Below, in pieces: positions 9,501 through 32,000 of a stretch of DNA of 32,000 bases. The DNA comes from Dehalococcoidia bacterium (GTDB lineage: Bacteria; Chloroflexota; Dehalococcoidia; Lucifugimonadales; UBA1127), in the NCBI GenBank assembly GCA_965197715.1, contig OZ240224.1, positions 878,695-910,694 on the forward strand, read 5' to 3'. Within the stretch, counting starts at the first letter, position 1. Every line of letters starts with the position of its first letter. A program made the position numbers and the translations under genes. Under the pieces are notes generated by a model. The model saw nothing but the letters and a program-made list of their open reading frames with translations, was not told where the DNA came from and did not search any database.

Positions 9501-9505
9501 GGGAC

Positions 9506-13439: not shown

Positions 13440-13540
13440 GAGTCCAACCTCCGATAGTGTGCGTCAGGCAGAATGGGTCCCAACGCGGCCCTCGGCGCCG
13501 CCGGTGAGCGGCGGGTGCCGTGAGCGCGTCAACGCCGTGC

Positions 13541-14587: not shown

Positions 14588-14751
14588 GGGTGTTCCTCCC
14601 GCTTCATCCGGTTCTCTGCAGATAGGCCTTCCCAGGCCTGCGTCGCACCCAGAAGGGCTCAGCGAGCCCCCGAAACTGACCCGTGCCGGCTGCCAGGCGC
14701 CCAGAACAGCGCTGCGCCGGCAGCCCTGGTGAGATGCTTTGTCGCTGTCGC

Positions 14752-18992: not shown

Positions 18993-19922
18993 ATGGAGTT
19001 TGGAGTGACGGTCCCCAATCTGGGGGGCATCGCCAGTACGGAGACGCTGGCGCAGATGGCCGTACGCATCGAGGAGCTGGGCTTCGACGCCGTTTTCGTG
19101 AGCGACCACGTGGTCATGCCGACTACGGTCACGTCGCGCTACCCCTACGGCTCCAGCGGAGTGATCGGCGTGGGCGCCGACGAGGACGTCTTCGAGCCCT
19201 TCACCGTCCTCGCCTACCTGGCGGGCATAACCAGCCGTGTACGGCTGGGGGTGAGCGTCATGGTCCTCCCCTACCGCCATCCGGTGCTGAACGCCAAGAT
19301 GCTCGCCACCCTGGACGTCCTCTCAGGCGGCAGGCTGATTGCAGGCGTGGGCGTCGGTTGGATGAAGGAGGAGTTCGAGGCCCTGGACGCCGACTACGAC
19401 CACCGGGGGGCCGTGACCGACGAGCACATCCAGGTGCTCACGGCCCTCTGGACCCAGGAGGAGCCGCATTTTGCGGGGCGGCACTACAGGATCGAGGGCG
19501 TCAGGTCCCTCCCGCGGCCCCTCCAGAGGCCGCGCCCGCCCATCTGGGTCGGCGGCAACACCGCGCCCGCCTTGCGCCGCGCCGCCCTGCTCGGCGACGG
19601 CTGGCACGCCGTGCGCATGACCCCCGCCCAGCTCGCGGCTCAGTGCGAGACCCTGCGGCGACTCCGGGAGGAGCGCGGTGTGGCCTCCCGGGAATTCCGG
19701 GTGTCCGTCAGGTCCAGCCTCCGGGTGACGGACGCACCCCTCGGCGAAGGGCGCACGCCACTGAGCGGGACGCCGGAGCAGCTTCTCACGGACGTGCGCG
19801 AATACCGGGACGCGGGCGCCGACTACATGGTGGTGGGGGCCTCGGGCAGCAGCCTGGAAGAGACGCTGGGCCACCTGGAGCGCTTCGCCGCGGACGTCCT
19901 CCCCGCAGCGCGTGACGTGTAA
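18993..19922 (+). CDS. LLM-class oxidoreductase, Rv2161c/TIGR03619-like (probably F420-dependent)
   Basis: MEFGVTVPN..., FVSDHVVMP, LGVSVMVLPYRHPVLNAKMLATLDVLSGGRLIAGVGVGWMKEEFEAL and RPPIWVGGN. GGGGAGGAAG RBS. The cofactor cannot be assigned by eye. Confidence 0.85.
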   Translation: MEFGVTVPNLGGIASTETLAQMAVRIEELGFDAVFVSDHVVMPTTVTSRYPYGSSGVIGVGADEDVFEPFTVLAYLAGITSRVRLGVSVMVLPYRHPVLNAKMLATLDVLSGGRLIAGVGVGWMKEEFEALDADYDHRGAVTDEHIQVLTALWTQEEPHFAGRHYRIEGVRSLPRPLQRPRPPIWVGGNTAPALRRAALLGDGWHAVRMTPAQLAAQCETLRRLREERGVASREFRVSVRSSLRVTDAPLGEGRTPLSGTPEQLLTDVREYRDAGADYMVVGASGSSLEETLGHLERFAADVLPAARDV

Positions 19923-20028
19923 CGCGCCGTCGCCCCCCGGCCGCCTCCGGGCGTCGCCGGCGCAAGGTTGATGCCGGCCCGCGGTTCGGGCATAATACGT
20001 CAACCTCACCGGGTCAAGGAGCGAAGCT

Positions 20029-20709
20029 ATGGCTACAGAGACGGTGGACAGGACCTTCGTAAACTCCGTCATCGAGGAGATCATCAAGCCGGGGATTCAA
20101 CGGCTCATGGAAACACGGTACTTCTCCGACCTGCGGGAGGGGACACTCTCCATACGCAGGCTCCAGGGCTTTGCGCTGCAGCACTACGCCCACAACATCG
20201 CCATCAACAAGGGCTTTGCGCTCAGCATGGTCAAGAACGCCCACAACCCGGATGTGTTCGAGGTGTTCCAGGAGCAGTTTGTGGAGGAGTCCACTCATCC
20301 CAACATGGCCAAGCGGTTTGGCCTCGCCCTGGGGCTGAGGGAAGAGGAGTTTGACAACGTCCAGCCCATCTACGAGTGCACGGCGCACACGGGGTCAATC
20401 GTTCGCGGGATGCTGCTGGGCGGACTTGCGGAGAACCGCACGTCGGCCCTGACCAACGAGAGCATGGTGCAGCGGTACTCGGAGGAGTTCGCCACCTACT
20501 TGCGGAAGAGCTACGACCTCCCTGAGGGGGCCCTGGAGTTCTTCGTTGTCCACGGCGTCGCCGACATCGCCCACACCCAGGCCGCCGCCGACATCGTCGC
20601 CCGCAACGCCCTCACCGAGCAGGTCCAGCAGCGCGTCCGAGAGGTGGCCCGGCAGCAGGTGCGCTTCAAGATCGCCAAGTTCGACGGCCTCTACGAGGCC
20701 TACGCCTAG
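20029..20709 (+). CDS. Heme-oxygenase-fold protein (TenA/PqqC/iron-containing redox enzyme family)
   Basis: 226 aa, predicted all-helical. Motifs are EESTH, TNESMV and HGVADIAH (20551..20574). AAGGAG RBS. Confidence 0.65.
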   Translation: MATETVDRTFVNSVIEEIIKPGIQRLMETRYFSDLREGTLSIRRLQGFALQHYAHNIAINKGFALSMVKNAHNPDVFEVFQEQFVEESTHPNMAKRFGLALGLREEEFDNVQPIYECTAHTGSIVRGMLLGGLAENRTSALTNESMVQRYSEEFATYLRKSYDLPEGALEFFVVHGVADIAHTQAAADIVARNALTEQVQQRVREVARQQVRFKIAKFDGLYEAYA

Positions 20710-20749
20710 CACCGAGGGCGTGCCGTCACCCGCGCAACCCGGCCACTCC

Positions 20750-21403
20750 CTACGGGTCGTGGGGCCACTTGGTGCCGCCCACCGAGGGTCGTTGCTCCGG
20801 CGGCAGCGCGAGACCCTCTTTGACCGCGGCGGTGAACTCGCCCGTTACGACCCTCCCCCACTCGCAGGCGTGGTCCACCCGATAGGCCGTCCTTCCGGTG
20901 CGGAAGGCGCTTCGCGACGGCTCGCTCATCTCCCCCAGCGGCTTGTCCATGTCGGCGGCCGCAACCCTCGCTTGCCTGACCTCCGCCTCCATGCCGTCGA
21001 CGCGCTTGACCAGGGCGTTGGCCGTCTCGATGAACCGGCATATCTCCCGCATCTCTGCGTCAAACACGATGAACAGCGGCAGCGTCCCGTGGCGGTCCTC
21101 CGTGAGGAAGCTGTTGGCCAGGTCCAGGTTCTGGTCGCGCTCGAAGATGCGCATCTCCAGCTTTCCCGTTGACTCGGCCAGCTTCATGATGGCCGGGGTG
21201 CTGCTCACGGCGTCGCCGCACCAGGGCTCGGTGAGCACCGCCAGCCGAAGCGGCTGCGGTAGGCTGTCGAAGTAGGCCTGCTCCTCAGGCTGTACCTCTA
21301 CGTCGTTGTATATCTGGAGGATGGCGTCCTTGTTGACCCTGATCAGGTCCCAATACTCCGTCCCCGTAAACCCCTCGGCGAACTTCTCCGCGGTCAGTGG
21401 CAT
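20750..21403 (-). CDS. Thioredoxin-like fold protein (Thioredoxin_9-like, single-Cys WCGD motif)
   Basis: LAVLTEPWCGDAVSSTP and LPLFIVFD. GGAGGTGA RBS. 217 aa. Confidence 0.65.
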   Translation of the reverse strand: MPLTAEKFAEGFTGTEYWDLIRVNKDAILQIYNDVEVQPEEQAYFDSLPQPLRLAVLTEPWCGDAVSSTPAIMKLAESTGKLEMRIFERDQNLDLANSFLTEDRHGTLPLFIVFDAEMREICRFIETANALVKRVDGMEAEVRQARVAAADMDKPLGEMSEPSRSAFRTGRTAYRVDHACEWGRVVTGEFTAAVKEGLALPPEQRPSVGGTKWPHDP

Positions 21404-21629
21404 GGCGTCTCACCTCCGTGCATTCGCCTCGCGGCGTGTGCTGTGGCGCCAAGATACGCTCTCCAGGCCCTGGCGACAACCCGGCGAGCGTCGTCCCACG
21501 GCGCGCCTCCGCGGGTCCGCTGGACAAACCGGGAGCGATGGAGTAAAAGAGTGGAAGGGTAGGGCCCAGGCGGTGAACGGCCCCGGACCTCGATGGAAAG
21601 ACCACACAAACACGGAGCGGAGGCGGCGC

Positions 21630-22715
21630 ATGGCGACGGCAAACACGCAACCATCGAATACGTCGGGCGGCTCCCGGGAAGTGCTGATCTCGGCGGACTC
21701 CCATGTGCTGGAAGCCGCTGATTTCATGGAGAAGCGGCTCCCCGACAACCTGCGAAGCCGCGCGCCCCGCTTCCCCGAGGAGCGCATCGGCGAGCGGCAC
21801 CAGGCCCACGCGGGAGGGCGCGACCGCAACGAGCGCGTGCGCGAAATGGAAACAGACGGCATCAGCGCGGAGGTTCTCTACCCCAGCTATCCCATGAAGC
21901 TGTATAGCCTGGGGCGGGAGAACGCGGATCTCCAGGAGGCCTGCTTCCGCGCGTACAACGACTGGCTGGTGGAGTACTGCCAGGCCGCCCCGGACCGGCT
22001 CATCGGCATCGGCATGGTCTCCGCCTACGACATAGAGTCCGCTGTTCTGGAGACGCAGCGCTGCAAGCAGCTCGGTATGGGCGGCGTCATGGTCTGGCAG
22101 TGCCCGCCGGAGGAGCTCCCCTTCTCCTCCGGCTACTACGACCCCTTCTGGCAGGCCGCCGAGGAGCTGCGCATGCCCGTCAGCATTCACTCTCTGACGG
22201 GCATCGGCGAGGGCGCGCGGCGCTTCCCCGGCCGCAGCGTCGACCGCGAGGGCGTCGACCGCTACCGGGGCCGCAACTACAGTCAGCTGGACGTGGCAAA
22301 CACGCTGTTCGAGATCGTCTTCTCCGGTGTGCTGCACCGCTTCCCCCAGCTCAGGGTGGTCCTGGTGGAGAATGAGATCGGGTGGATACCCTTCACGCTC
22401 CAAGGCTGGGACCGCTCCGTGGAGAAGTTCGCGGCCAACACCACGCTGAGCATCGACAAGCCGCCCAGCGAGTACTTCAACCGGCAGGTGTACGCGACGT
22501 TCTTCAACGACGACGTGGGCGGCAAGATGCTCTCCTGGTGGGGCAAGGACAACTGCATGTGGTCCAACGACTATCCCCACCCCAACTCCACCTGGCCCCA
22601 CTCCAAGGAGGCCATCGCCAGGACGCTTGGACATCTGAACGACCAAGACCGGGAGAAGGTGCTGACCAGCAACGTAGCCCGGCTCTACGACATCGACGTC
22701 TCCAGGCTTGCGTAG
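21630..22715 (+). CDS. Amidohydrolase-2 family protein
   Basis: The start is moved to ATG 21630, with GGAGG 6 nt upstream. LISADSHVLEA at the N-terminus and WSNDYPHPNS at the C-terminus. The ORF-track start at 21306 adds a 108-aa Arg-rich extension that overlaps the divergent gene. Confidence 0.85.
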   Translation: MATANTQPSNTSGGSREVLISADSHVLEAADFMEKRLPDNLRSRAPRFPEERIGERHQAHAGGRDRNERVREMETDGISAEVLYPSYPMKLYSLGRENADLQEACFRAYNDWLVEYCQAAPDRLIGIGMVSAYDIESAVLETQRCKQLGMGGVMVWQCPPEELPFSSGYYDPFWQAAEELRMPVSIHSLTGIGEGARRFPGRSVDREGVDRYRGRNYSQLDVANTLFEIVFSGVLHRFPQLRVVLVENEIGWIPFTLQGWDRSVEKFAANTTLSIDKPPSEYFNRQVYATFFNDDVGGKMLSWWGKDNCMWSNDYPHPNSTWPHSKEAIARTLGHLNDQDREKVLTSNVARLYDIDVSRLA

Positions 22716-22833
22716 CCTGGCGTGAGCGGCCCTGACTCCATGGCCGGCGGGAGGGATCACCCTCAGCCCGGCCCACTCCCAGGGTGAGAGGGAGTGACCC
22801 GGCCAAGCCCTAGGAGAAAACGAAGGAGGAAAC

Positions 22834-23286
22834 ATGGCAACGAAGACGGCATCCAAGGCGGAGGTGTTCTCGCTGCGGACCCCGTACCTCTCGGCGGGCC
22901 GCATTACGTCCCTAGTGGCGGAGACGGACAACCTCTGGGTCCATACCAAGATCAACGCGGAGGGCGGCGAGAACGCGCTGCACAAGCACACGGAGGAGGA
23001 CCACGCCTTCATCGTGCTGGAGGGCGAGGTGACCTTCTTCGATGAAGAGGGCACCGAGACCGTCGTCAAACCCTATCAGGGGATCATGCTGCCCAAGGGC
23101 GCCTACTACCGCTACCTGAACACCGGCCCCGGCAACCTCATGATCATCCGGGTGGGTGCAGGGAAGCAGGGCGGCGGGGGCGAGGAGACGCGCATCGGAC
23201 CCGACGGCAATCCGCTTCCGTCCGAGTCCGCAGAGAACAAGAAGATCGAGGCGGTCCCGGTCCCCGGGAAGTTCTTCGGGGGCTAG
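22834..23286 (+). CDS. Cupin-domain protein
   Basis: NALHKHTEEDHAFIVLEGEVTFFDEEG and MLPKGAYYRYLNTG are the cupin motifs 1 and 2. GAAGGAGGAA RBS. Confidence 0.75.
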   Translation: MATKTASKAEVFSLRTPYLSAGRITSLVAETDNLWVHTKINAEGGENALHKHTEEDHAFIVLEGEVTFFDEEGTETVVKPYQGIMLPKGAYYRYLNTGPGNLMIIRVGAGKQGGGGEETRIGPDGNPLPSESAENKKIEAVPVPGKFFGG

Positions 23287-23371
23287 GGAGGGCGTAGCTG
23301 TCCCCGACCGGCCGGCCGAGAGCAGCCCACGCGGCCGGGGGACAGCCGCCCGATGAGTTGCGAGAACCAGA

Positions 23372-23399
23372 AGCGGGCCGCTCCTGTGAGCGGCCCGCT
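23372..23399. terminator. Strong hairpin between convergent genes (AGCGGGCCGCTC-CTGT-GAGCGGCCCGCT)
   Basis: Perfect 12-bp GC-rich stem with a 4-nt loop. On the minus-strand reading it is followed by TTCTGGTTCT. It could act as a bidirectional terminator for the cupin and GYD genes. Confidence 0.55.
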
Positions 23400-23439
23400 T
23401 GTCATTGCTGGTGCCGTGGCCCCTCGGGGCCCGATGGGG

Positions 23440-23760
23440 CTATGCCCCCGGCGGCCGGTAGTTGATGGGCTTTTGAGTGGCGGCATCCACCTCTTCAGGC
23501 GTGATGAGCACCGTTGTCTTGACGCTGATGGCCCCGGCGGCGCCGACGTTCAGCGAAGCCGCCGTCATAGTGGCCGCATCCGGCATGTCGAAGATTACGA
23601 TGACGTCGTCGCCGCCAAAGGCGAAGTAGAACGACTCCACCTTGCCGCCGGCATCGCTGGCAAGCTTCTCGACCGCCTCACGCCGCTTGGTCCCACCGTC
23701 CTTGAGTAACCCGGCGGCCCCCTGGGGCGTATAGGAGCACGTTATCATGTACTTTGGCAT
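23440..23760 (-). CDS. GYD-domain protein
   Basis: MPKYMITCSYTPQGAAGLLKDGGTKRREAVEKL...GGDDVIVIFDMPD is typical of PF08734. AGGAGGAG RBS upstream of ATG 23760. The ORF-track version (to 23928) runs through the tRNA-Pro gene. Confidence 0.75.
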   Translation of the reverse strand: MPKYMITCSYTPQGAAGLLKDGGTKRREAVEKLASDAGGKVESFYFAFGGDDVIVIFDMPDAATMTAASLNVGAAGAISVKTTVLITPEEVDAATQKPINYRPPGA

Positions 23761-23777
23761 GCTCTCCTCCTGGCAAG

Positions 23778-23854
23778 TGGTCGGGGCGAGAGGATTTGAA
23801 CCTCTGACCCCCTGCACCCCATGCAGGTGCCCTACCAGGCTGGGCCACGCCCCG
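23778..23854 (-). tRNA. tRNA-Pro (anticodon GGG), CCA encoded
   Basis: The reverse complement folds as CGGGGCG-TG-GCCC-AGCCTGGTA-GGGC-A-CCTGC-ATGGGGT-GCAGG-GGGTC-AGAGG-TTCAAAT-CCTCT-CGCCCCG-A-CCA. 77 nt, with G37. Confidence 0.9.
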
Positions 23855-23862
23855 ATGCCGCA

Positions 23863-23891
23863 AGTATAGCAGCGCAGGGGGTGAACCTCAA
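23863..23891 (-). promoter_or_regulatory. Candidate promoter of tRNA-Pro (TTGAGG-17 nt-TATACT)
   Basis: On the minus strand, TATACT ends 8 nt upstream of the tRNA 5' end, and TTGAGG lies 17 nt further upstream. Confidence 0.4.
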
Positions 23892-23912
23892 GCGGACAAC
23901 TAGGGGCCGGAC

Positions 23913-23949
23913 GGCGCCGGCGCGACACAGCAGATGAGCTGCCGGCGCC
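23913..23949 (-). terminator. Hairpin just downstream of ffh (GGCGCCGGC ... GCCGGCGCC, 9-bp stem, 19-nt loop)
   Basis: Perfect 9-bp inverted repeat that begins 2 nt after the ffh stop codon. The loop is large and there is no U-tract. Confidence 0.25.
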
Positions 23950-23950
23950 C

Positions 23951-25285: not shown

Positions 25286-25361
25286 GATAGGCTCCTTGGG
25301 TCTATTCTACAGGGCGCCGGGCGAATCAGGAATGCCGGCCGGCGCCCCACCGCCGCACTCC

Positions 25362-25390
25362 TAGACCTCGGCTGCCGCTGCCGGTATCAT
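25362..25390 (+). promoter_or_regulatory. Candidate promoter (TAGACC-17 nt-TATCAT) for the DinB-like gene
   Basis: -35-like TAGACC at 25362..25367, a 17-nt spacer, and -10-like TATCAT at 25385..25390, 32 nt upstream of ATG 25423. Confidence 0.35.
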
Positions 25391-25422
25391 GCTGGGGCCA
25401 CTCCACGCCGCAAGGAGGCCGT

Positions 25423-25839
25423 ATGTCACGCACGGAGGTCCAGCAGTTGCTGGATGAGATCACCGCCGCCCACAGGTCCTGCGAGGATGACGCGTCCGCC
25501 CTCACGAACGAGCAGCTCGACCGCTCCTTCACCATGCGCAGCGGGCGTCAGACCAACGTCCGCGGCATCCTCTACATGATGACGGGCCACACCAAAGAGC
25601 ACACGGTCCACATGAAGAAGCTGCTTCAGGAGACCGGCGCCCCGGGCGCCTCTCCCTCCGAGGCCCATCTGATCCTGGAGGAGGCCGGCGAGGCCCTGGG
25701 ACGGCTCAAGGCCCTCTTCGCCCGCATGAGCGACGACGACCTGGACCGGGAGTTCGAAGAGCAGACGCCGAGAAAGATCCTGGAGCACGTCAAGGGCAGC
25801 TACACCTACTACCAGCGGTTCATCCAGGGCAAGGGGTAG
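25423..25839 (+). CDS. DinB-superfamily protein
   Basis: 138 aa. MMTGHTKEHTVHMKKLL and a helical-bundle pattern. AAGGAGG RBS. Confidence 0.55.
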   Translation: MSRTEVQQLLDEITAAHRSCEDDASALTNEQLDRSFTMRSGRQTNVRGILYMMTGHTKEHTVHMKKLLQETGAPGASPSEAHLILEEAGEALGRLKALFARMSDDDLDREFEEQTPRKILEHVKGSYTYYQRFIQGKG

Positions 25840-25852
25840 GCCTGCCGCGCGG

Positions 25853-26548
25853 CTACTTCTCGGAGAAGGCCTGGAGATGCTCCTCCAGCTCGGAGAGGTG
25901 CATGACGTCGGCGTACTTGTGATGCATGTCGAAGAGGTTCACCTTGTGTGACAGCAGGCTCCTGTCGTAGGTGCACTCCTCGACCAGCACTACGTGGAAG
26001 CCGTACGAGTAGGCGTCGGCGACCGTCGCGCGTACGCAGCCGCTGGTGCTCTCGCCGCCGACGATCAGGCTGTCGATGCCCTGGCGGGTCAGGTGAGCGA
26101 TCAGCGGCGTGCCGAAGAACACGCTGGCCCGCTCCTTGTAGATGATGAGGTCCTGGGCTTCCGGCTTGAACGCCTCGAAGATCTCGTACCGGCTGGCGTC
26201 GCCCCCGGACGATTGCCTATGGGTGGCCCGCACACGGTCCGTGCGGGGGTCCCGGCGCGTCTCTCCCGTGCTGTAGACCACGGGCATGCCCCGGGCGCGG
26301 ACCATGCTGAGGAGCCGCTTGGTGGGCTCGATGGCGTCCCACGCGTAGTCGCCGCATGCGCTGGGGAACTGCTTCGCAATCTCGTGGACGGGGCCGGGGC
26401 CGCCCTGGTACGCCGAGTTGTACAGGTCGATGAGCAGGACGGCCGGCCGCTCCCCCAGGTGAAGCTCCCGGCGATAGTGCCGGTAGATCTCTATGTCCTC
26501 CGGGCTCACCAGGTCCTTCCACGCGTGGTCTTCAAATGCGTCCGTCAT
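25853..26548 (-). CDS. Isochorismatase-family cysteine hydrolase
   Basis: The start is moved to ATG 26548, preceded by AGGAGG. Candidate D-K-C triad: LLIDLYN, IIYKERASVFFGT and VGGESTSGCVRAT. The ORF-track start at 26956 adds 136 aa of low-complexity sequence. Confidence 0.8.
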   Translation of the reverse strand: MTDAFEDHAWKDLVSPEDIEIYRHYRRELHLGERPAVLLIDLYNSAYQGGPGPVHEIAKQFPSACGDYAWDAIEPTKRLLSMVRARGMPVVYSTGETRRDPRTDRVRATHRQSSGGDASRYEIFEAFKPEAQDLIIYKERASVFFGTPLIAHLTRQGIDSLIVGGESTSGCVRATVADAYSYGFHVVLVEECTYDRSLLSHKVNLFDMHHKYADVMHLSELEEHLQAFSEK

Positions 26549-26755
26549 TTCGGCGCCTCCTGCTCTGCCGGGCTGCTGCGCCCGGGCGGGTTGAGCACAC
26601 TGTACACCATGGGGCATCGCTGCACCCCCGGATGGTCTGCGCGACGGATTGTGGGCACCTGATGTCCTTGATTGTTTACCTTCGCATGATTGCGAGAGAC
26701 ATTTTTTTCTTGGGGTTGTGAAGCTGAAAGGGTCGAAAAAAGGTGATTGTGTGTC

Positions 26756-26769
26756 GGCGGGAAACCGCC
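26756..26769. other. GNRA-type hairpin GGCGG-GAAA-CCGCC in the non-coding gap
   Basis: Perfect 5-bp GC stem closing a GAAA tetraloop on the plus-strand reading. Confidence 0.3.
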
Positions 26770-26848
26770 CCGTAGCTTCGGCGCGGCTGTGCACTCTTGA
26801 TTGTTCCCTGGTGGGAGTAGCTTCGGAGGTGGTGCAGAACGGCGTTTT

Positions 26849-26913
26849 GGGGGGATGTCCCGCGCCGCACCGCCGCGCCGGATGCCCGCTTTCGCGGGGT
26901 CGCTGCGCGACGG
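26849..26913. repeat. Tandem-unit core 1 (GGGGGGATG...GGATGCCCGC...GGGTCGCTGCGCGACGG)
   Basis: It shares its G6-ATG start and CGCGACGG end with 26979..27034. It also shares a 17-mer (16 of 17 identical) with 27153..27169. It contains the hairpin CCCGC-TTTC-GCGGG at 26885..26898. Confidence 0.55.
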
Positions 26914-26978
26914 ATGTATAGACGTTGGTTGGGAGCGGTGCGTCGGAATGCGTCATCAGGAGTGGGGAGGGTCTGTGC

Positions 26979-27034
26979 GGGGGGATGCCCGGCGCCGCGC
27001 CGCCACCCTGGATTCCCGCTCGCCGGCGCGACGG
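26979..27034. repeat. Tandem-unit core 2 (GGGGGGATGCCC...GGATTCCCGC...CGCGACGG)
   Basis: Imperfect direct copy of 26849..26913 with ~9 nt fewer. Its G-run starts 130 nt after the previous one. Confidence 0.55.
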
Positions 27035-27117
27035 CCACGTGGGCCTGGCTGCGCCAGCGGCAGACGAGGGGCTGGGTGGGACCTCTGTGCTTCCTCATAG
27101 GATGAGGATAGGCGATT

Positions 27118-27169
27118 GGGGGGGTTGACGGAAGTGGCGGATGGCAGGTCCTGGGTCGCTGCGCGGCGG
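27118..27169. repeat. Tandem-unit core 3 (GGGGGGGTTG...GGATGGCAGG...GGGTCGCTGCGCGGCGG)
   Basis: Its G-run starts 139 nt after the previous one. The 3' 17-mer nearly matches core 1. The upstream GTGGGAC-CTCTGTGC resembles GTGGGGAGGGTCTGTGC in front of core 2. Confidence 0.45.
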
Positions 27170-27193
27170 CTTTGTGGGCGTGGGTTGCGGCGG

Positions 27194-27946
27194 CTACAGC
27201 CTGAGTCTCTTGAACACGCGCTCAGGAACGGCGCGAATCACGAGCATGATCCACTTCCAGTACCAGGGGAGATAGGCCACGTCGCTGCCCTTTTCGATGG
27301 CCCTGACGATGCCGCGCGCGATCTTGTCGGGCGGCGCCAGCAGCCGTCCCACCGCCATGCCGCGCGTCATGGGCGTGTCCACGGGGCCGGGCTTGACGGT
27401 GACGACCTGAACGTTTGACGGCGCCAGGCGGTTCCTCAACCCCTGCAGGAAGAGGCTGAGGGCCCCCTTGGCGGACCCGTACACGTAGTTGCTCTGGCGG
27501 CCCCGGTCCCCCGCAACCGAGGACACGCCGACGATGACGCCCGCCCGCTGCGCCTCGAACAGATCGGCGAGGCTGGTGAGCACGGACACGGCCGCCAGGT
27601 AGTTGACCTCCACGATCCTCCGCGCCTCCCGGAACTCATGCCGGGCCGCGTCCGCGTCGCCCAGGTCGCCGAAAAATAGCAGCGCGCCGTCCAGCCCGCC
27701 CATCTCGCGGACGGCGCCGGCCACCAGGTCGGCGTGAGTGCCGTAGTCCAGGGCCTCGAAGACTCCCGTGCGCACGGTGGCGTCGAAGCGCACGCGGAGG
27801 TCGCCCGCCACCGCGTCCAGCTCTGCGTCGATCCTGCCGGCGAGGAAGAGGGCGCAGCCCCTTCCCGCCAGGCGGAGCGCGGTGGCGCGCCCAATGGACG
27901 ACGTCGCACCCAGGACGAGGAGCCGGGTGCCCTCGTCGAGCTTCAC
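27194..27946 (-). CDS. dprE2: DprE2-like short-chain dehydrogenase (decaprenylphospho-2-keto-ribose reductase family)
   Basis: LLVLGATSSIGRA, VNYLAAVSV, NYVYGSAKGALS and the C-terminal WIMLVIRAVPERVFKRLRL all parallel M. tuberculosis DprE2 as I recall it. The GTG start overlaps the upstream stop (GTGA). Confidence 0.8.
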   Translation of the reverse strand: MKLDEGTRLLVLGATSSIGRATALRLAGRGCALFLAGRIDAELDAVAGDLRVRFDATVRTGVFEALDYGTHADLVAGAVREMGGLDGALLFFGDLGDADAARHEFREARRIVEVNYLAAVSVLTSLADLFEAQRAGVIVGVSSVAGDRGRQSNYVYGSAKGALSLFLQGLRNRLAPSNVQVVTVKPGPVDTPMTRGMAVGRLLAPPDKIARGIVRAIEKGSDVAYLPWYWKWIMLVIRAVPERVFKRLRL

Positions 27947-29313
27947 GTCGACAACCCGAGGCGCCGGCCCTGGCTGGAGGTGAAGACCCCCTCCGGGTCG
28001 TACTTCAGCTTGACCTCACGCCACTCCTTCCACTGCGGGTACATGGCACGGAACGTGTGCGCCGGCAACCGCGCGTCCTTGGCGAGATAGACCCGACCCT
28101 GGTGCCTGAGCACCAGAGCGTCCAGCTCCCCAAGGAACTCGAGAAAGGCAGCCGAGTAGACGGGGAAGTCCAGGGCGATGGTGTAGCCCGGCATGGGAAA
28201 GGAGAGGATGCCCTCCTGGGGGCCGAAGCGCTTGAGAACGATCAGAGGGGACGGGTACCCGGACGCATGGACAGCCTCCAGGACCTCCACGAGGGCGCGC
28301 CTACCGGTGTCGAAGGGCAACACACACTGGTACTGCAAGAACCCCCTCCTGCCGTAGAACCTATTCCAGCCGGGTAGGCCGTCCAGGGGGTAGAAGTACC
28401 GGTCATAGTGCACCAGACCATCGCCGGAACGATTGGAGATGCGGTAGAAGCTGTTCAGCAGCCGCATGGTGGCCCGGTTCACGACATTGACCGGAGGCGC
28501 CAGCCCGATTCCCCCGCCTCCTTCGCCGTGGCCCGCAAGGGGAGCAGCGCGGCGGCGCGGCGGCAGCCCCTCCACGGGCGCGTGGTTTCCCCCAATGACG
28601 ACGCCGCGGCCCAGGCGCTTTCCCCGCGCCAGGCCGTCGACCCACGCCACCGAGTACTCGTGGGTCGCGTCCAGGCGCTCCAGCGCCTCGACCGCGGCGT
28701 CCAGGTCCCTGACGCCAACGGTCTTGGCCTGGATGTAGGAGGACTGGACCCGTCGCAGCCGCAGCGCGGCCCGGAGAATGAGCCCCGTGAGCCCCATGCC
28801 GCCGGCCGTCGCCCAGAAGAGGTCGGGGGAGTCCCCGCGTGAGCAGCGGACGACGCTGCCGCTCGCCAGAAGCAGGTCGAAGGAATCCACGTGGCGGCAG
28901 AACGAGGAGACGGCGTGGTGGTTCTTGCCGTGGACGTCGCAGGCAATGGCCCCGCCGACGGTCACGAACTTGGTCCCCGGCGTCACGGGCGGGAACCACC
29001 CCCTCGAGGCCATGACGCGCAGGACCTCGGCCAGGGAGACCCCGGCCTCGCAGGTGAGCACTCCGGTCTCGTCGTCGAAGGCCAGGAACCTGTCGAGCCG
29101 TGTCAGGTCGACGACGTTGCCCCGGTCCAGAGCGGCGTCCCCGTAGCTGCGCCCAAGGCCCCGGGGTGTGAGCGCGCCCAGGGACAGGAGCGGCGCCACG
29201 TCCCGTACCTTCTCGGGCCGGTAGGTCCGCGCCTCCTGCATGGGGAAGCGCCCCCATCCGGCCAGCATTCGGACTTCCGGCTTCATGTCGACTGGGGCCG
29301 CGTCAACACCCAT
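27943..29313 (-). CDS. dprE1: DprE1-like FAD-dependent oxidoreductase (decaprenylphosphoryl-beta-D-ribose 2'-oxidase family)
   Basis: LAGWGR, RGLGRSYGDAAL, GTKFVTVGGAIACDVHGKNHH, LFWATAGGMGLTGLI, GFLQYQ and RVYLAKDAR match conserved DprE1 blocks. The start is uncertain: ATG 29313, 29286 and 29268 are all possible. Confidence 0.85.
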   Translation of the reverse strand: MGVDAAPVDMKPEVRMLAGWGRFPMQEARTYRPEKVRDVAPLLSLGALTPRGLGRSYGDAALDRGNVVDLTRLDRFLAFDDETGVLTCEAGVSLAEVLRVMASRGWFPPVTPGTKFVTVGGAIACDVHGKNHHAVSSFCRHVDSFDLLLASGSVVRCSRGDSPDLFWATAGGMGLTGLILRAALRLRRVQSSYIQAKTVGVRDLDAAVEALERLDATHEYSVAWVDGLARGKRLGRGVVIGGNHAPVEGLPPRRRAAPLAGHGEGGGGIGLAPPVNVVNRATMRLLNSFYRISNRSGDGLVHYDRYFYPLDGLPGWNRFYGRRGFLQYQCVLPFDTGRRALVEVLEAVHASGYPSPLIVLKRFGPQEGILSFPMPGYTIALDFPVYSAAFLEFLGELDALVLRHQGRVYLAKDARLPAHTFRAMYPQWKEWREVKLKYDPEGVFTSSQGRRLGLST

Positions 29314-29337
29314 AGACCTGACGTGCGGGCAGGATGC

Positions 29338-29362
29338 GGACCTCGCGCGTACGCGCCGGTCC
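29338..29362. other. GC-rich palindrome/hairpin containing GCGCGTACGCGC
   Basis: GGACC...GGTCC arms flank the perfect 12-bp palindrome at 29345..29356. It lies between the LLM stop (29409) and the dprE1-like start. Confidence 0.3.
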
Positions 29363-29408
29363 GGGGCCGCGAACGGACAGCGCCGGTGGTGGGGTGGTCC
29401 GCTCGCTG

Positions 29409-30350
29409 CTAGCGGCGCAGCCTTGGTATGAGCTGCTGCGTCAGCTTGTGGATCGTCTGCTGCACCTCGGCGAGGGCGCGGGCCTGGGGCAGGAAGATGA
29501 AGTGTGCGACGCCAATGTCGATGTACGACTGCACCGTCTCGGCTATGGCGTTCGCATCGCCGAAGAGTGCGTCGCGCTTTGCCGCCTCAGCCGTGTCGGG
29601 CTCGTCGCGAAGGTCGACCAGCACGCGAAGGGCCAGGCTCACGTCCTCCGGCTGCCGGCCATAACCCGTTGCCATCTGCTGCACGCGGGCATGGTCCGCC
29701 GCCAGGCTCTCCGGCGTCACGTGGTAGAGCGGCGGGAACCACATCGAGCCGACTTGGGCCGCGCGCCGCATGGCGGGCCTGGTGTGACCGCCTATCCAGA
29801 TGGGCGGGTGGGGCTTCTGGGCCGGTTGAGGGTAGGATGCGACCCCCTCCACTCGGAAGAAGCGCCCCTCGTGGAAGGGCTCAGCCTGCGTCCACACGGC
29901 CCGCAGCACCTCAAGCCCCTCGTCCAGCAGCGCGCCCCGGTCCTCGAAGGACACGTCCAGGGCCCGGAACTCCTCCTCCAGCCATCCGGCCCCGACCCCG
30001 AAGAGCACCCGCCCCCCCGACAGCACGTCCAGGGACGCGATGGTCTTGGCGACCTGAAGCGGGTGGCGCAGAGGCAGCAGCGTGACCGCCGTGCCCAGGG
30101 CCACGCGCTCCGTGCACCCGGCGACATAGGCGAGCGTGGTGAACTGGTCCAGAAAGGGCAGGGCCGAGCGGATGAGGAACTCGCCCGTGTCGCTGTAGGG
30201 GTAGGGCGAGGAGCCCCCCGTCGGCAGCACGATGTGGTCCGCGGCCCACACGGAGTCCAGCCCCTCCACCTCCGCCTGCCGCGCCACGAGACGTACCGCC
30301 TGCGGGTCCTCCATCCCTATCGTGGGCAGCGACACCCCAAACTGGGCCAC
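29409..30350 (-). CDS. LLM-class oxidoreductase, Rv2161c/TIGR03619-like (paralog of 18993..19922)
   Basis: The start is moved to GTG 30350, preceded by AAGAGGAG at 5 nt. FGVSLPT, AADHIVLP, LGTAVTLLPLRHPLQVAKTIASLDVLSGGRVLFGVGAGWLEEEFRAL and HPPIWIGGH. The ORF-track start at 30509 adds 53 aa. Confidence 0.85.
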   Translation of the reverse strand: MAQFGVSLPTIGMEDPQAVRLVARQAEVEGLDSVWAADHIVLPTGGSSPYPYSDTGEFLIRSALPFLDQFTTLAYVAGCTERVALGTAVTLLPLRHPLQVAKTIASLDVLSGGRVLFGVGAGWLEEEFRALDVSFEDRGALLDEGLEVLRAVWTQAEPFHEGRFFRVEGVASYPQPAQKPHPPIWIGGHTRPAMRRAAQVGSMWFPPLYHVTPESLAADHARVQQMATGYGRQPEDVSLALRVLVDLRDEPDTAEAAKRDALFGDANAIAETVQSYIDIGVAHFIFLPQARALAEVQQTIHKLTQQLIPRLRR

Positions 30351-30508
30351 GGCGCTCCTCTTATGCACAGGCTGGGAAACCGCGCCCATCATACGGCAGC
30401 GCCGCCCCGCAGACAACGCCCCCCGGGCCGCGCGGCCGCCCATTGCCACCCCGCTGCGGTGCGTGCTACCCTGCCCTTCCAAGCAGAGCGTGACATGGGA
30501 GGCTGGCA

Positions 30509-31273
30509 ATGGTCAAGGATAGCCGTGAGTTCCTGGAAGAGGTCCGGGGGATGGTGGCGCGAAAGCACAGCAAGGACCACCCCATCTTCGACCTGATACA
30601 GAGCGGTCGGCTGAGCCGGGAGCAGATGAGGAACTTCACAAAGCAGTTCTACCTCCTCTTTCCCAAGCTGTTCCCCAAGCCCATCGCGGCCATGCTCTCC
30701 CGCTGTCCGCCGGACGACCCGGAGCTGGAGCGCATGTGGATCGACAACCTCATGGATGAGGCCACCGGCGGCGAGACGGGCACCGTGGGCCACCGGGGGA
30801 TGTACGTCAGGTTCGCAGAGGCCATGGGCATCCCCCAGGACGAGCTGGAGGCCACCAGGCCCCTGCCGGAGGCGGCCGCGTTCCTGCACTGGCGCGAGCT
30901 GCTCATCAGCCAGCGTACGTGGCTGGAGCTCTACGCATCGCAGGGCCTGTGCCTGGAGGGCACGGCGGCGCCGCGGATGGCGAGGGTCGTCGACGGCTTG
31001 GTGGACCACTACGGCTTCTCGCGGGACGACGAGCGGCTGGAGTACTGGGTGGAGCACATGTCCGCCGACGAGGAGCACATGAAGGTGGGCCCCTACGCCA
31101 TCCTGCACTACGCCGTCAACGACGAGGCGCAGGAGCGCGTGCGCCAGGCCGTGCAGAACACGCTGGACGTCTTCTGGCTGGTCTTCGACGGCATGACGCG
31201 CGCCTTCGTCGACGAGGACCCGCTGTACGCGGCGTGGCGGCGGCCCGCCGCGGCGTCCGCCGGCGGACGCTGA
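30509..31273 (+). CDS. Heme-oxygenase-fold protein (PqqC/TenA/iron-containing redox enzyme family)
   Basis: HPIFDLIQSGRLSREQMRNFTKQFY is a PqqC/TenA-type N-terminus. Other motifs are DEATGGETGTVGH, CLEGTA and HMSADEEH (31055..31078). GGGAGG RBS. Confidence 0.7.
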   Translation: MVKDSREFLEEVRGMVARKHSKDHPIFDLIQSGRLSREQMRNFTKQFYLLFPKLFPKPIAAMLSRCPPDDPELERMWIDNLMDEATGGETGTVGHRGMYVRFAEAMGIPQDELEATRPLPEAAAFLHWRELLISQRTWLELYASQGLCLEGTAAPRMARVVDGLVDHYGFSRDDERLEYWVEHMSADEEHMKVGPYAILHYAVNDEAQERVRQAVQNTLDVFWLVFDGMTRAFVDEDPLYAAWRRPAAASAGGR

Positions 31274-31299
31274 GGAGCGCGCTTCGAAGGGAGGAAGCA

Positions 31300-32000
31300 A
31301 TGCGGGACGGTTACAGGGTCTACGATCCGGACACGCACATTCACCCCTCCGTGGAGTCGCTGGAGCCCTACTTCGACCCCGAGTTCCGGCCAAGGCTCGC
31401 GGAGCTGGCGCAGTACAGGGTCCAGGCGCGGTCGGACCAGACCACGACGCCCAGGGAGGACCCATCCCGGCACCACTACAACGTGGGGCTGACGCCCTAC
31501 CAGCGTGTGCTCGGTCAGGCAGGGCCGGCGGAGTCGCCCAAGGACGGGCACAACCGGCTCCACTTTGGGGGCTATACGGGCCGCAAGCTGCCCGCGGTAG
31601 GGGTCATCGACGACGCGGTGGACGCTCGCGTCGCGGACATGGACGAGGAGGGGACCGACGTTCACGCCATGGTGCCGGACGTGACCACCGGCTTCGCACT
31701 GCTGGGAGACCCTTCCATCGAGGTCTCCGTGAACCGCGCCTATCACCGCTTCATGAACGACCTCTGCTCCAAGTACCCCGGCCGGCTCAAGGCGCACCTG
31801 GCCGTGACCGGGTCGGCGGTGGAGGACTCGGTGCTGGAGATCAAGACCTGGGGCGACGCGCCCTGGGCTGTGGGAATCTGGCCCTACTCCGGCGTCGACA
31901 AGCCCCTGGACCACCCCGACCTGGAGCCCATCTGGGCCGCGGCGGCGGAGAAGGACCTGGCCGTCGTCCATCACAGCACAACGTGGGTGCCCCCCTACTT
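31300..32000 (+). CDS. Amidohydrolase-2 family protein (partial, runs off the right edge)
   Basis: GGGAGGAAG RBS, then ATG 31300 and MRDGYRVYDPDTHIHPSVESLEPYF (DxH motif). The frame stays open to the window end (233 codons). It is missing from the ORF track because no stop codon is reached. Confidence 0.8.
   Translation, partial: MRDGYRVYDPDTHIHPSVESLEPYFDPEFRPRLAELAQYRVQARSDQTTTPREDPSRHHYNVGLTPYQRVLGQAGPAESPKDGHNRLHFGGYTGRKLPAVGVIDDAVDARVADMDEEGTDVHAMVPDVTTGFALLGDPSIEVSVNRAYHRFMNDLCSKYPGRLKAHLAVTGSAVEDSVLEIKTWGDAPWAVGIWPYSGVDKPLDHPDLEPIWAAAAEKDLAVVHHSTTWVPPY

Follow-up and report, generated by a model that had tools for sequence, protein, structure and literature searches.

The two look-alike gene trios found in the window (the whole 32,000-nucleotide stretch of DNA that was analysed) do not represent two copies of a single pathway unit, and only the second of them, set 2, holds a pairing that recurs in relatives, that of LLM2 with HO2. 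Each trio contains a luciferase-like oxidoreductase (LLM), a predicted heme-oxygenase-like dimetal oxidase (HDO) and a PF04909 protein. The likeliest reading of the window is that of a paralogue-rich catabolic stretch on the chromosome of a member of the Dehalococcoidia (SAR202-like Chloroflexota); the nearest genome locus (L010), 96% identical to HO2, lies on a Dehalococcoidia MAG chromosome, and other loci bear the label Dehalococcoidia, Chloroflexota or SAR202. The two sets are probably independent juxtapositions, in this paralogue-rich window, of three expanded oxidoreductase families, with the LLM-HDO pair of set 2 being recurrent.

Gene content of the window

18993..19922, forward strand: LLM1, luciferase-like oxidoreductase, TIGR03619 (Rv2161c-type, predicted F420-dependent), 309 aa; PF00296 E 1.6e-55, TIGR03619 257 bits
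20029..20709, forward strand: HO1, predicted CADD-like HDO; PF14518 55.9 bits, PF03070 48.2 bits
20750..21403, reverse strand: Thioredoxin_9-family gene; PF14595 91 bits
21630..22715, forward strand: AH1, PF04909 protein of PtmU3/DitZ type (ARO-like), 361 aa; PF04909 82.5 bits
22834..23286, forward strand: Cupin_2 gene, downstream of AH1; PF07883 36 bits
29409..30350, reverse strand: LLM2, TIGR03619-type luciferase-like oxidoreductase, 313 aa, divergent from HO2; TIGR03619 243 bits
30351..30508, no strand: divergent LLM2/HO2 intergenic region, 158 bp; gap comparison across loci
30509..31273, forward strand: HO2, predicted CADD-like HDO, 254 aa; PF14518 81.6 bits, also PF03070
31300..32000, forward strand: AH2, first 233 codons of a PF04909 gene truncated by the window end, full product 391 aa; PF04909 26.9 bits (fragment)
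17228..18370, forward strand: third LLM gene, of another subfamily; PF00296 E 1.5e-40
1672..16154, no strand: background region with four further PF04909 (ARO-motif) genes; Pfam
1932-3074, forward strand: background PF04909 gene; Pfam
3117-4469, forward strand: background PF04909 gene; Pfam
13541-14587, reverse strand: background PF04909 gene; Pfam
14752-15996, reverse strand: background PF04909 gene; Pfam

The Pfam and NCBIfam matches place the six genes of the two sets where the original prediction had put them and in the families that it had named, and the thioredoxin-like and cupin genes expected in and after set 1 were borne out as Thioredoxin_9 (reverse strand) and Cupin_2 (forward strand). 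LLM1 and LLM2, which are 38% identical in pairwise alignment, do belong to one subfamily: both exceed the TIGR03619 cut-off of 166.9 bits, as do the LLM2 orthologues and the LLM adjoining an HO1 homologue in L004, and the sequence block quoted for them is present in both proteins. The 313-aa length of LLM2 that results from a GTG start at 30350 agrees with its orthologues, which form a compact family (at least 56% identity). The best PDB relatives of both proteins are uncharacterised LLMs (E ~1e-21), and the link to F420 is a prediction that comes with the name of the TIGR03619 model; we know of no member of this subfamily with a characterised reaction.

By Pfam, the approximately 31 genes of the window include six PF04909, three LLM and two HO genes. 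The third LLM gene has no NCBIfam match at E 1e-30 or better and shares 30-33% identity with LLM1 and LLM2 in partial-length alignments; it is considered background and illustrates the local density of the family. The four background PF04909 genes carry the motifs DYPHGD, DMPHHD, DYGHAD and DYPHGD, and their region is flanked by an inverted repeat (1672-3037 and 14789-16154; 1366 nt, 98%). AHa and AHd, two of the PF04909 paralogues in the window, are 97% identical.

HO1 and HO2 as predicted dimetal oxidases

The shared motif layout proposed for the two HO-fold proteins was found as the same metal-ligand arrangement in both. The ligand set of HO1 (E87, H90, E144, H175, D179, H182) occupies columns that are invariant across 27 homologues, and that of HO2 (E84, H95, E150, H183, D187, H190), invariant in 26 homologues, aligns to E81, H88, E142, H174, D178 and H181 of CADD. 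The AlphaFold2 models of HO1 (pLDDT 93.8) and HO2 (pLDDT 89.6) have CtCADD as top PDB match, with TM values of 0.82/0.86 and 0.76/0.89, respectively, and also match PqqC, UndA, BesC, FlcD and HrmI. Judged from sequence and models, both proteins, which are 21% identical to each other (E 3e-10), are thus predicted CADD-like HDOs with a complete 3-His/3-carboxylate ligand set.

The self-sacrificing 4-aminobenzoate synthase CtCADD/NePabS (PDB 1RCW, 8VA9) is the best match for HO1 and HO2 in sequence and fold, sharing the helical HO-like fold and ligands that align residue by residue. Nonetheless, the sacrificial Tyr27 of CADD is Phe in both (F27 in HO2, F32 in HO1), a change that in CADD abolishes pABA formation (PMC9522330), and Lys152 is replaced by a gap in HO2 and by Phe in HO1. 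There are no folate genes around HO1 or HO2, and the two proteins reach only 51 and 83 bits against the TIGR04305 cut-off of 200. The loss of Tyr27, the gene context and the sub-threshold score indicate that the chemistry of the two proteins would have to differ from that of CADD and use a free substrate. By analogy with other HDOs (UndA, BesC, HrmI, FlcD, AetD, SznF), with which they share superfamily, fold and dimetal ligand logic, HO1 and HO2 likely act on a free small molecule; this superfamily has been reviewed (PMC13108848). Identity to these enzymes is only 17-22%, however, and they come from biosynthetic clusters of Actinomycetota, Pseudomonadota and Cyanobacteria, whereas HO1 and HO2 belong to catabolic-looking neighbourhoods of Dehalococcoidia and Binatia.

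AH1 and AH2 as putative oxygenases

The assignment of the "amidohydrolases" to a hydrolase or decarboxylase role was not supported, given that the PF04909 proteins carry the signature of the amidohydrolase-related dinuclear oxygenases (AROs), whose motifs are defined as N-terminal D-x-H and C-terminal D-x-P-H-x-[DE] (PMC13154177), and look more like metal-dependent oxygenases than hydrolases. They share the PF04909 fold and these motifs with PtmU3, DitZ, SfbO and AibH2, whereas classical PF04909 enzymes (ACMSD, LigW, IDCase, gamma-resorcylate decarboxylase) give far weaker matches (E 1e-12 to 1e-6). AH1 carries D-S-H and D-Y-P-H-P-N, and among solved structures its closest relative is PtmU3, a diiron monooxygenase (PDB E 2.9e-43, residues 19-355), to which it aligns end to end with an identical SADSHVLE strand, while DitZ matches with a PDB E of 3.9e-35. 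The Asn that replaces Asp/Glu at the last motif position sets AH1 apart from the AROs and makes its oxygenase status less certain; it is kept in the L010 near-twin and in the more distant orthologues of L032, L033 and L049.

In AH2, which follows the ARO motifs strictly, D-T-H lies within the window at residues 11-13, and the C-terminal DYPHAE at residue 350 was read from the 96%-identity locus L010, where the full 391-aa orthologue scores 62.2 bits against PF04909. This orthologue and all five others have DTH and DYPH[AS]E, and AH2 itself has its best PDB match (E 1.8e-19) in 8sm8, an ARO of known structure. The middle residue of D-x-H is hydrophilic in both proteins (Ser in AH1, Thr in AH2), as in high-potential AROs, whose neighbourhoods are largely without Rieske ferredoxins (PMC13154177). 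The surroundings of AH1 and AH2 differ from those of known AROs in having neither a Rieske ferredoxin nor a CoA-ester or diterpenoid pathway context.

Conservation of set 2

The LLM2-HO2 pair is a conserved neighbourhood. Of 38 Chloroflexota loci, 25 have a divergently oriented LLM2 orthologue at most 1 kb from HO2, where flank density predicts approximately 1.6 (a ratio of about 16), and the pair is spread over at least five clades. Given that many of these loci come from one clade (19 of the 25 form a single closely related clade whose flanks are syntenic as well), the independent observations number approximately five rather than 25. About one in three Chloroflexota loci lacks the intact pair, and none of the 42 Binatia-type loci has it. 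The 158-bp intergenic region presumably holds both promoters; among members of the largest clade the gap spans 74-78 bp, as against 156-188 bp in the window and in L010, L015, L018, L040 and L043.

AH2 lies on the strand of HO2 and begins 26 bp past its stop codon, which makes co-transcription likely. In L002, L014, L018, L040 and L043, an orthologue of AH2 (62-72% identity) is separated from HO2 by 2.6-6.6 kb, and orthologues of all three set-2 genes occur within 4-6 kb in L018, L040 and L043. PF04909 adjacency to HO2 is nevertheless not enriched (one locus versus 4.7 expected).

Four loci chosen from the LLM2 side give a different picture, in that LLM2 is accompanied throughout by a Lactamase_B (metallo-β-lactamase-fold) gene that overlaps it, with no HO gene within 6 kb, which speaks against an LLM-HO-amidohydrolase core. 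The LLM2-HO2 pairing could, therefore, be inherited synteny and not functional coupling. That no adjacency, LLM2-HO2 included, reflects functional coupling, with abundant LLM and PF04909 paralogues and inherited gene order accounting for all of it, would agree with these HO2-free operons, with the dominance of a single syntenic clade, with the occurrence of HO2 without an LLM in Binatia and several Dehalococcoidia clades, and with the high density of LLM and PF04909 genes in the window and of these families in SAR202 genomes. We nonetheless regard it as rather unlikely, because the pair survives in at least three flanking contexts (Rieske/LigXa, DAO-HpcH, or AH2 downstream) and at 60-69% identity for both proteins, always in divergent orientation (27 of 27 loci carrying both genes), and exceeds expectation as given above. 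Moreover, three distinct architectures place an AH2 orthologue no more than 10 kb from HO2, which by a rough estimate is very unlikely for a one- or few-copy gene in a ~3-Mb genome.

Set 1, chance and duplication

Set 1 reads LLM1 and HO1 on the forward strand, the thioredoxin-like gene on the reverse strand and AH1 on the forward strand. A promoter-like site (19968-19996) lies in the 106-bp gap between LLM1 and HO1, and AH1 forms a separate transcription unit, since the opposite-strand gene separates it from HO1. Set 1 is a lineage-specific arrangement without comparative support, kept solely in near-identical genomes. The locus of a 73%-identical HO1 orthologue has neither an LLM1 nor an AH1 partner, and the set is also lost at a 64%-identical one. 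Near-identical L171 is the only locus in which the Thioredoxin_9 gene accompanies an HO1 homologue, and the Cupin_2 gene is conserved only in L171 and L010. Among 85 HO1-family loci, none has a PF04909 gene and three independent ones (L004, L119, L138) have an adjacent LLM, TIGR03619-like and not orthologous to LLM1, which hints that the LLM-HO adjacency of set 1 may not be pure chance.

When the window genes were shuffled, an LLM stood next to both HO genes in 3% of shuffles, a PF04909 gene within two genes of both in 35%, and both arrangements arose jointly in 0.7%. This indicates that the LLM adjacency is unusual and that the amidohydrolase part alone is not.

The recurrence of the "same combination" is real only at the level of families; LLM, HO and AH identities are 38, 21 and 25%, and gene order and strands differ between the sets. 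Whole-unit duplication was rejected on this very unequal divergence, on the orientations and on pairwise alignment, in which AH1 is closer to AHa and AHd (32%, ~145 bits) than to AH2 (25% over 124 aa, 85 bits).

It is distinctly improbable that each set is a working unit of reductase, oxygenase and hydrolase/decarboxylase that arose twice by duplication or parallel recruitment, and for set 1 this is already largely refuted. The low joint shuffle frequency for families that recur within 13 kb, the common TIGR03619 membership of the LLMs, the identical ligand layout of the CADD-like HO proteins, the LLMs adjoining HO1-type HDOs in three loci and the three set-2 orthologues clustered in L018, L040 and L043 agree with such a unit. 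Against it stand the loss of set 1 at both HO1 orthologue loci and its absence from the other HO1-family loci save three with a non-orthologous LLM, the interruption by the thioredoxin-like gene, the lack of enrichment of PF04909 genes beside HO2, the different PF04909 subgroups of AH1 and AH2, and their oxygenase rather than hydrolase motifs. Of the recurring three-gene set, what stands is the LLM-HO pair of set 2 with AH2 within 10 kb.

Proposed roles

We infer all catalytic roles from family membership, and the likeliest reading of the set members is as oxidative catabolic enzymes. On the preferred reading of independent juxtapositions, the TIGR03619-type LLM and the CADD-like HDO of set 2 are transcribed divergently across a short, presumably shared control region; their pairing would be ancestral to the Chloroflexota branch of the HO2 family and mostly retained there. 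The ARO-type AH2 would have moved directly downstream of HO2 in the window lineage; in other genomes it shares the catabolic island with HO2 at a distance of a few kb. HO2 would bind a dimetal centre (Fe2 or Fe/Mn) through three His and three carboxylates and activate O2 to oxidise a free small-molecule substrate, being unable, unlike CADD, to use a Tyr of its own. AH1 and AH2 would be dinuclear-metal, O2-dependent hydroxylases of the PtmU3/DitZ/SfbO kind and not hydrolases or decarboxylases, and the LLM may use flavin or F420 for a redox step whose substrate is the same intermediate or a neighbouring one. That the LLM instead passes reducing equivalents from F420H2 or reduced flavin to the HDO and/or an H-type ARO is very improbable: the hydrophilic D-x-H residue, the lack of a small Rieske ferredoxin in the window, the LLMs adjoining both HDO clades and a CofE (F420 ligase) gene near one LLM2 orthologue would fit, but the characterised LLM-family enzymes that we know of act on small molecules and not in electron transfer to partner proteins, the constant LLM2 partner is the MBL-fold protein and not an HDO, and most HO1- and HO2-family loci have no LLM nearby.

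The related loci add aldolases (HpcH, DHDPS-like), an FAD oxidase (DAO), a cyclase/formamidase-like protein and isochorismatase-like hydrolases, which suggests the oxidative breakdown of a compound, probably bearing nitrogen or carboxylate, into central metabolites. Large LLM (FMNO) paralogue expansions are on record for SAR202 genomes (Landry et al. 2017, PMC5395668), and the window likewise has many LLM paralogues together with hydrolases, SDRs and transport binding proteins in catabolic islands, with Rieske oxygenases in related loci. A term search of that paper returned no "amidohydrolase"; to its general picture the window adds six ARO-motif genes in a single stretch and the conserved pairing of LLM2 with HO2.

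Gene content of the window

The genes of the window were mapped with a GC3-guided ORF map and with Pfam/NCBIfam scans. The original prediction had described a trio formed by a luciferase-like oxidoreductase (LLM), a heme-oxygenase-fold protein (HO) and a PF04909 "amidohydrolase" (AH), which occurs as set 1 (LLM1, HO1, AH1) and as set 2 (LLM2, HO2, AH2, the last cut by the end of the window). All these genes were found at their places.

Features of the window
238-323: tRNA-Leu, beside the left arm of an inverted repeat
800-1687: DDE transposase gene, IS-type, abutting the left arm of the same repeat
1932-3074: PF04909 gene, in the ARO ligand alignment
3117-4469: PF04909 gene, in the ARO ligand alignment
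13541-14587, minus strand: PF04909 gene, in the ARO ligand alignment
14752-15996, minus strand: PF04909 gene, in the ARO ligand alignment
18993-19922, plus strand: LLM1, TIGR03619 at 257.2 bits (cut-off 166.9)
20029-20709, plus strand: HO1, PF14518 and PF03070
20750-21403, minus (opposite) strand: Thioredoxin_9 gene
21630-22715, plus strand: AH1, PF04909, in the ARO ligand alignment
22834-23286: cupin_2 gene
29409-30350, minus strand: LLM2, TIGR03619 at 242.6 bits (cut-off 166.9); the start giving 313 aa fits the orthologues
30509-31273, plus strand: HO2, PF14518 and PF03070
31300 to the window end (32000), plus strand: AH2, PF04909, in the ARO ligand alignment

The two sets are separated by genes for a GYD-domain protein, tRNA-Pro, ffh, DinB_2, an isochorismatase-family protein, an SDR and FAD_binding_4/ALO. 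Elsewhere, the window carries four further PF04909 genes (AHa, AHb, AHc and AHd), a third LLM, two SBP_bac_5 binding proteins and three epimerase-family genes, together with SnoaL, alpha/beta-hydrolase and HbpS-like genes. Given that six PF04909 and three LLM genes are found among about 31 genes, the recurrence of the trio has to be read differently. About 170 related loci were examined besides the window. The nearest genome locus, L010, lies on a Dehalococcoidia MAG chromosome (96% protein identity), and further related loci bear the label Dehalococcoidia, Chloroflexota or SAR202. Large paralogue expansions of LLMs ("FMNO") are known from SAR202 genomes (PMC5395668).

An inverted repeat of 1366 nt (1672-3037 and 14789-16154, 98% complementary) doubles an ARO-motif PF04909 gene, with AHa and AHd being 97% identical as proteins. 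A second, older inverted pair (5049-5276 and 11806-12033, 75%) lies inside the two SBP_bac_5 genes. Because of these two inverted pairs, the region of 1.7-16.2 kb looks like a mirrored segmental duplication. Three details of the map between the sets deserve mention. The 118-aa ORF at 23353-23709(+) has no Pfam match and is unlikely to be a real gene. On the other strand, 23440-23928(-) codes for a protein with a GYD domain (PF08734, 97 bits). The tRNA-Pro(GGG) at 23778-23854(-) lies between the GYD gene and ffh, within the upstream extension of a long minus-strand ORF. The isochorismatase-family ORF at 25853-26956(-) gives 367 aa from its first ATG versus 231 aa in the orthologues of L010 and of a second homologous locus, L171; its Pfam domain is limited to the C-terminal part, and the true start probably lies further downstream.

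HO1 and HO2 as putative dimetal oxidases

The AlphaFold2 models of HO1 and HO2 (pLDDT of 93.8 and 89.6) have the heme-oxygenase-like helical bundle fold, and Foldseek comparison with the PDB gave CtCADD as the best match (TM 0.76-0.89), followed by PqqC, UndA, BesC, FlcD and HrmI. The residues E87, H90, E144, H175, D179 and H182 of HO1 are invariant in 27 sequences, as are E84, H95, E150, H183, D187 and H190 of HO2 in 26 sequences, and both sets align with the ligands E81, H88, E142, H174, D178 and H181 of CADD. The motif layout that the original prediction had seen as common to the two proteins is therefore borne out, with both having the 3-His/3-carboxylate set of primary ligands that defines the heme-oxygenase-like dimetal oxidases (HDOs; PMC13108848). 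HO1 and HO2 thus have the fold and the ligands of HDOs, and are predicted to bind Fe2 or Fe/Mn and activate O2.

The alternative of a CADD-type pABA synthase was rejected on three grounds. The sacrificial Tyr27 of CADD is replaced by Phe in HO2 (F27) and in HO1 (F32), and Lys152 corresponds to a gap in HO2 and to Phe in HO1; the Y27F substitution abolishes pABA formation in CADD (PMC9522330). The folate context is missing, given that the Pfam/NCBIfam scans found no folate genes in the window, and the TIGR04305 scores of the two proteins are 51 and 83 bits versus a cut-off of 200. PqqC was rejected as well: HO2 reaches 81.9 bits with TIGR02111, whose cut-off is 240, and HO1 does not match this model, no pqqA, B, D or E gene is found in the window or in the related loci, and the full metal-ligand set is kept. 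PF03070 is matched at 48-53 bits. Thiamin salvage by a TenA protein is disfavored by the invariant diiron ligands, by the lack of adjacent thiamin genes and by the absence of a TPP riboswitch from the window, where the Rfam scan found no riboswitch and matched only two tRNAs.

In database records, homologues of HO1 and HO2 are often labelled "pyrroloquinoline quinone (PQQ) biosynthesis protein C" (JGI) and, in one case, "TenA family transcriptional regulator" (NCBI). Both labels look like over-annotation because the PqqC score is sub-threshold and the dimetal ligands are invariant.

PF04909 proteins as putative dinuclear oxygenases

Two motifs define the amidohydrolase-related dinuclear oxygenases (AROs): D-x-H on the N-terminal side and D-x-P-H-x-[DE] on the C-terminal side. 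The latter is missing from the characterised PF04909 hydrolases and decarboxylases, whose N-terminal motifs differ too (PMC13154177). Here, the D-x-H was sought on the first strand, and at least about 200 aa had to come before the C-terminal motif. AH2 fits both published motifs at the level of sequence, with D-T-H at residues 11-13 and DYPHAE at residue 350, the latter lying beyond the window end and being read from the 391-aa orthologue of L010 (96% identity). All six AH2 orthologues have DTH and DYPH[AS]E. AH1 has D-S-H at residues 23-25 and DYPHPN as its C-terminal motif, which keeps five of the six motif residues and has Asn (N319) in the last position; the form DYPH[PA]N recurs in the near-twin L010 and in three more distant orthologues. 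AH1 therefore resembles the AROs in sequence and falls one position short of strict membership.

The best solved relative of AH1 is the diiron monooxygenase PtmU3 (E 2.9e-43); the alignment covers the full length, and the SADSHVLE strand is the same in both. DitZ ranks next. For AH2, the best is 8sm8, ahead of further AROs with characterised structures. Given these motifs and relatives, an O2-dependent dinuclear hydroxylase is the most probable identity of the third member in both sets, and the classical PF04909 decarboxylase or hydrolase, which was the role originally proposed for it, was set aside for both AH1 and AH2.

Among the remaining paralogues, AHa, AHb and AHd have strict ARO motifs and AHc has DAH and DYGHAD. 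When aligned, all six PF04909 genes of the window agree at the ARO ligands (D-x-H, D-x-[PG]-H-x-[DEN], and an invariant His and Glu), which suggests that putative dinuclear oxygenases, and not hydrolases, are concentrated here.

Relationship between the two sets

When the genes of the window were shuffled, an LLM adjoined both HO genes in 3% of the trials and a PF04909 gene fell within two genes of both in 35%, with the two conditions occurring jointly in 0.7%. The adjacency of LLMs to the HO genes is unusual; the closeness of PF04909 genes is not.

It is true that the trio occurs twice at the level of families, and the conserved LLM block quoted in the original prediction is present in both LLM1 and LLM2. 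Nonetheless, the sets are not copies of each other. LLM1 and LLM2 are 38% identical, HO1 and HO2 21% (E 3e-10), and AH1 and AH2 25% over 124 aa. Comparison of the paralogues, made with the full-length AH2 from L010, shows that AH1 is nearest to AHa and AHd (32%, about 145 bits, versus 25% and 85 bits for AH2), and AH2 is likewise nearer to these two than to AH1. The order and strands also differ: in set 1, LLM1, HO1 and AH1 point forward with the thioredoxin gene reversed between the last two, and in set 2, LLM2 is reversed with respect to HO2 and AH2. Duplication of the whole unit was rejected on the basis of the identity matrix together with the differing orientation.

Neighborhood of set 1

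The HO1 family is tight, with proteins of about 222 aa that are 57-73% identical, and is found in Binatia, Methylomirabilota and Chloroflexota. The survey of this family covered 85 loci, with flanks of at least 1.2 kb available upstream in 57 and downstream in 50. L171, where the HO1 homologue is 96% identical, repeats the gene order of the window, and no other locus among the 85 has a PF04909 gene adjoining the HO1 homologue. L004, L119 and L138 are the only independent loci with an LLM closer than 1.5 kb; in each of the three it lies downstream on the same strand, and it is 28-36% identical to LLM1. The contexts are otherwise varied: the orthologue of L170 (73%) sits between a DHO_dh/NMO-like gene and ftsZ, a homologue at 64% follows an unrelated cupin gene, and one from Binatia is flanked by FtsX/M23 peptidase and amylase genes. 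In loci from soil metagenomes, HO1 homologues often have NMT1/THI5-like binding proteins nearby, which were not treated as informative on thiamin salvage. Set 1 is therefore lineage-specific. The LLMs of L004 (TIGR03619, 215 bits) and L119 (TIGR03619-like, 141 bits, below the cut-off) are a residual hint of an association between HO1 and LLMs. The promoter/terminator scan of set 1 found one promoter-like site and no terminator, and therefore says little on its transcription units.

Neighborhood of set 2

For the HO2 family, 80 genome loci were fetched and scored with family HMMs and tblastn. Given that the gene caller missed some LLM genes, the adjacency statistics rest on the coordinates of the HMM hits and tblastn matches and not on gene ranks. 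In 25 of the 38 Chloroflexota loci, the 1 kb upstream of HO2 contains an orthologue of LLM2 (60-68% identity, TIGR03619), versus 1.55 paired loci expected from the LLM density of their flanks (0.21 per 10 kb), and the orientation is divergent in every paired locus. The pair occurs in at least five clades of the neighbor-joining tree of HO2, with clades that do not have it in between, and is kept across three downstream contexts: Rieske/LigXa oxygenases with an AHc-like PF04909 gene; DAO, HpcH aldolase and further LLMs; and, in the window, AH2. The largest clade has an intergenic gap of 74-78 bp, and loci of the window type have one of 156-188 bp.

Two locus types (seen in L018, L040, L043 and L020-L080) share a GCATGGTA(C/T) element in this divergent gap, and in type C loci the element forms the inverted repeat TGGTATG...CATACCA. 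It may serve as a common operator or promoter element, and was not clearly found in the 158-bp gap of the window itself.

An LLM near HO2 is absent from all 42 Binatia or "delta" loci. These have a conserved operon in which HO2 is followed by a cyclase-like gene, a DHDPS-like gene, a small ORF and an FCSD-like flavoprotein, with the cyclase-like gene resembling the PF04199 gene beside HO2 in L002. Of the contexts of HO2, the cyclase-like/DHDPS-like/flavoprotein block is the one conserved most deeply, and it may point best to the substrate of HO2. In clades where HO2 is not paired with an LLM, HO2 heads or adjoins this block in L037, L047, L048, L086 and about 30 other Binatia-type loci, and also in L002 and L013; its flavoprotein is FCSD/Pyr_redox_2-like, and the Chloroflexota versions add an HpcH/HpaI aldolase.

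In one Dehalococcoidia clade that does not have the LLM2 pair, nitrile hydratase alpha and beta genes lie directly upstream of HO2 on the same strand (8034-9850 in L032, and likewise in L036, L045, L049 and L057). This may be of interest by analogy with AetD, a characterised HDO that makes nitriles.

With respect to AH2, a PF04909 gene lies within 1 kb of HO2 in L010 only, versus 4.7 loci expected, and this adjacency is therefore not enriched. AH2 adjoins HO2 only in the window lineage and is within 10 kb in five further loci (L002, L014, L018, L040 and L043), where its orthologues (62-72% identity) lie at 2.6-6.6 kb in two further architectures. By a rough estimate, this closeness is far above chance for a gene of one or a few copies in a genome of about 3 Mb. 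L018, L040 and L043 have orthologues of all three genes of set 2, in the order AH2 (reverse), an intervening gene (forward), Lactamase_B (reverse), LLM2 (reverse) and HO2 (forward). In the lineage of the window, AH2 has been relocated and follows HO2 on the same strand after 26 bp. Downstream of AH2, L010 encodes a NudC-like NUDIX protein, ApbA/PanE, FAA hydrolase, glyoxalase, SDR and AKR.

The recurring three-gene unit as such is probably not a real feature. The interpretation of the original prediction is only partly supported.

LLM2 and its MBL-fold partner

The orthologue family of LLM2 is compact, with identities of at least 56% before a drop to 50% or less. The pair was also approached from the LLM2 side, using four orthologues whose contigs were absent among the HO2 matches listed or carried an unpaired HO2. 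In all four loci (L173-L177 range; e.g., L173 6001-7823), a Lactamase_B (MBL-fold) gene follows LLM2 with a 4-bp overlap, and no HO gene is found within 6 kb. One genome carries the LLM2-Lactamase_B locus and the HO2 locus on a single contig, separated by about 17 kb. The same two reversed genes, LLM2 and Lactamase_B, precede HO2 in most of the paired loci (including the L017-L043 range); the window and L010 have no Lactamase_B after LLM2, with FAD_binding_4/ALO there instead. HO2 is therefore a frequent but dispensable neighbor of an LLM2-MBL operon. In three of the four loci reached from LLM2, NYN-domain and bacterial-globin genes come after Lactamase_B.

LLM1 and LLM2 both score above the curated cut-off of NCBIfam TIGR03619 ("Rv2161c"), and F420 as their cofactor is a prediction carried in the name of this model. 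A CofE-type F420 ligase gene (PF01996) at 3342-3914 of L177, about 2 kb from the LLM2-MBL operon on one Dehalococcoidia contig, is the one indirect pointer to F420, and slightly favors the view that this lineage makes it.

Working model and implications

The pieces of both sets would act as independent oxidative enzymes in a catabolic island, with the single real module most likely being the divergent LLM2-HO2 pair, to which AH2 may be added. Beyond the families, ligand sets, motifs and neighborhood statistics established here, the roles are inferred. HO2 would oxidise a free substrate with O2 at its dimetal site, AH2 would hydroxylate a C-H bond, and the LLM would carry out a flavin- or F420-dependent redox step. 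The products could be handled by the neighboring aldolases, DAO, the cyclase-like protein, isochorismatase-like hydrolases and, in one clade, nitrile hydratase. A wider reading is that Dehalococcoidia/SAR202 possess a hitherto undescribed oxidative module. In it, a CADD-like HDO acting on a free substrate would be functionally coupled to two partners, a divergent Rv2161c-type LLM (F420- or flavin-dependent), mostly accompanied by an MBL-fold protein, and a dinuclear oxygenase of ARO type. This is tentative, and we consider it rather improbable.

HDOs and AROs are recently recognised O2-activating dimetal superfamilies with thousands of members, most of them with no known substrate, and those characterised come mostly from natural-product biosynthesis. 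Here they are found in catabolic-looking islands of abundant uncultured Dehalococcoidia, beside the LLM expansions known for SAR202. For PF04909 genes in such genomes, hydrolase or decarboxylase is not a safe default reading, and the recurrence of families in a genome rich in paralogues is weak evidence for a pathway unit unless neighborhoods are checked at the level of orthologues. The genes fall in known superfamilies, and the LLM2-HO2(-AH2) neighborhood is a modest but specific lead for enzyme discovery. If the wider reading were true, the catabolism of a recalcitrant organic compound would draw on two different O2-activating dimetal superfamilies within a single route, and the partnership between HDOs and LLMs could be general in Chloroflexota, as HO1-type HDOs occasionally adjoin TIGR03619-like LLMs.
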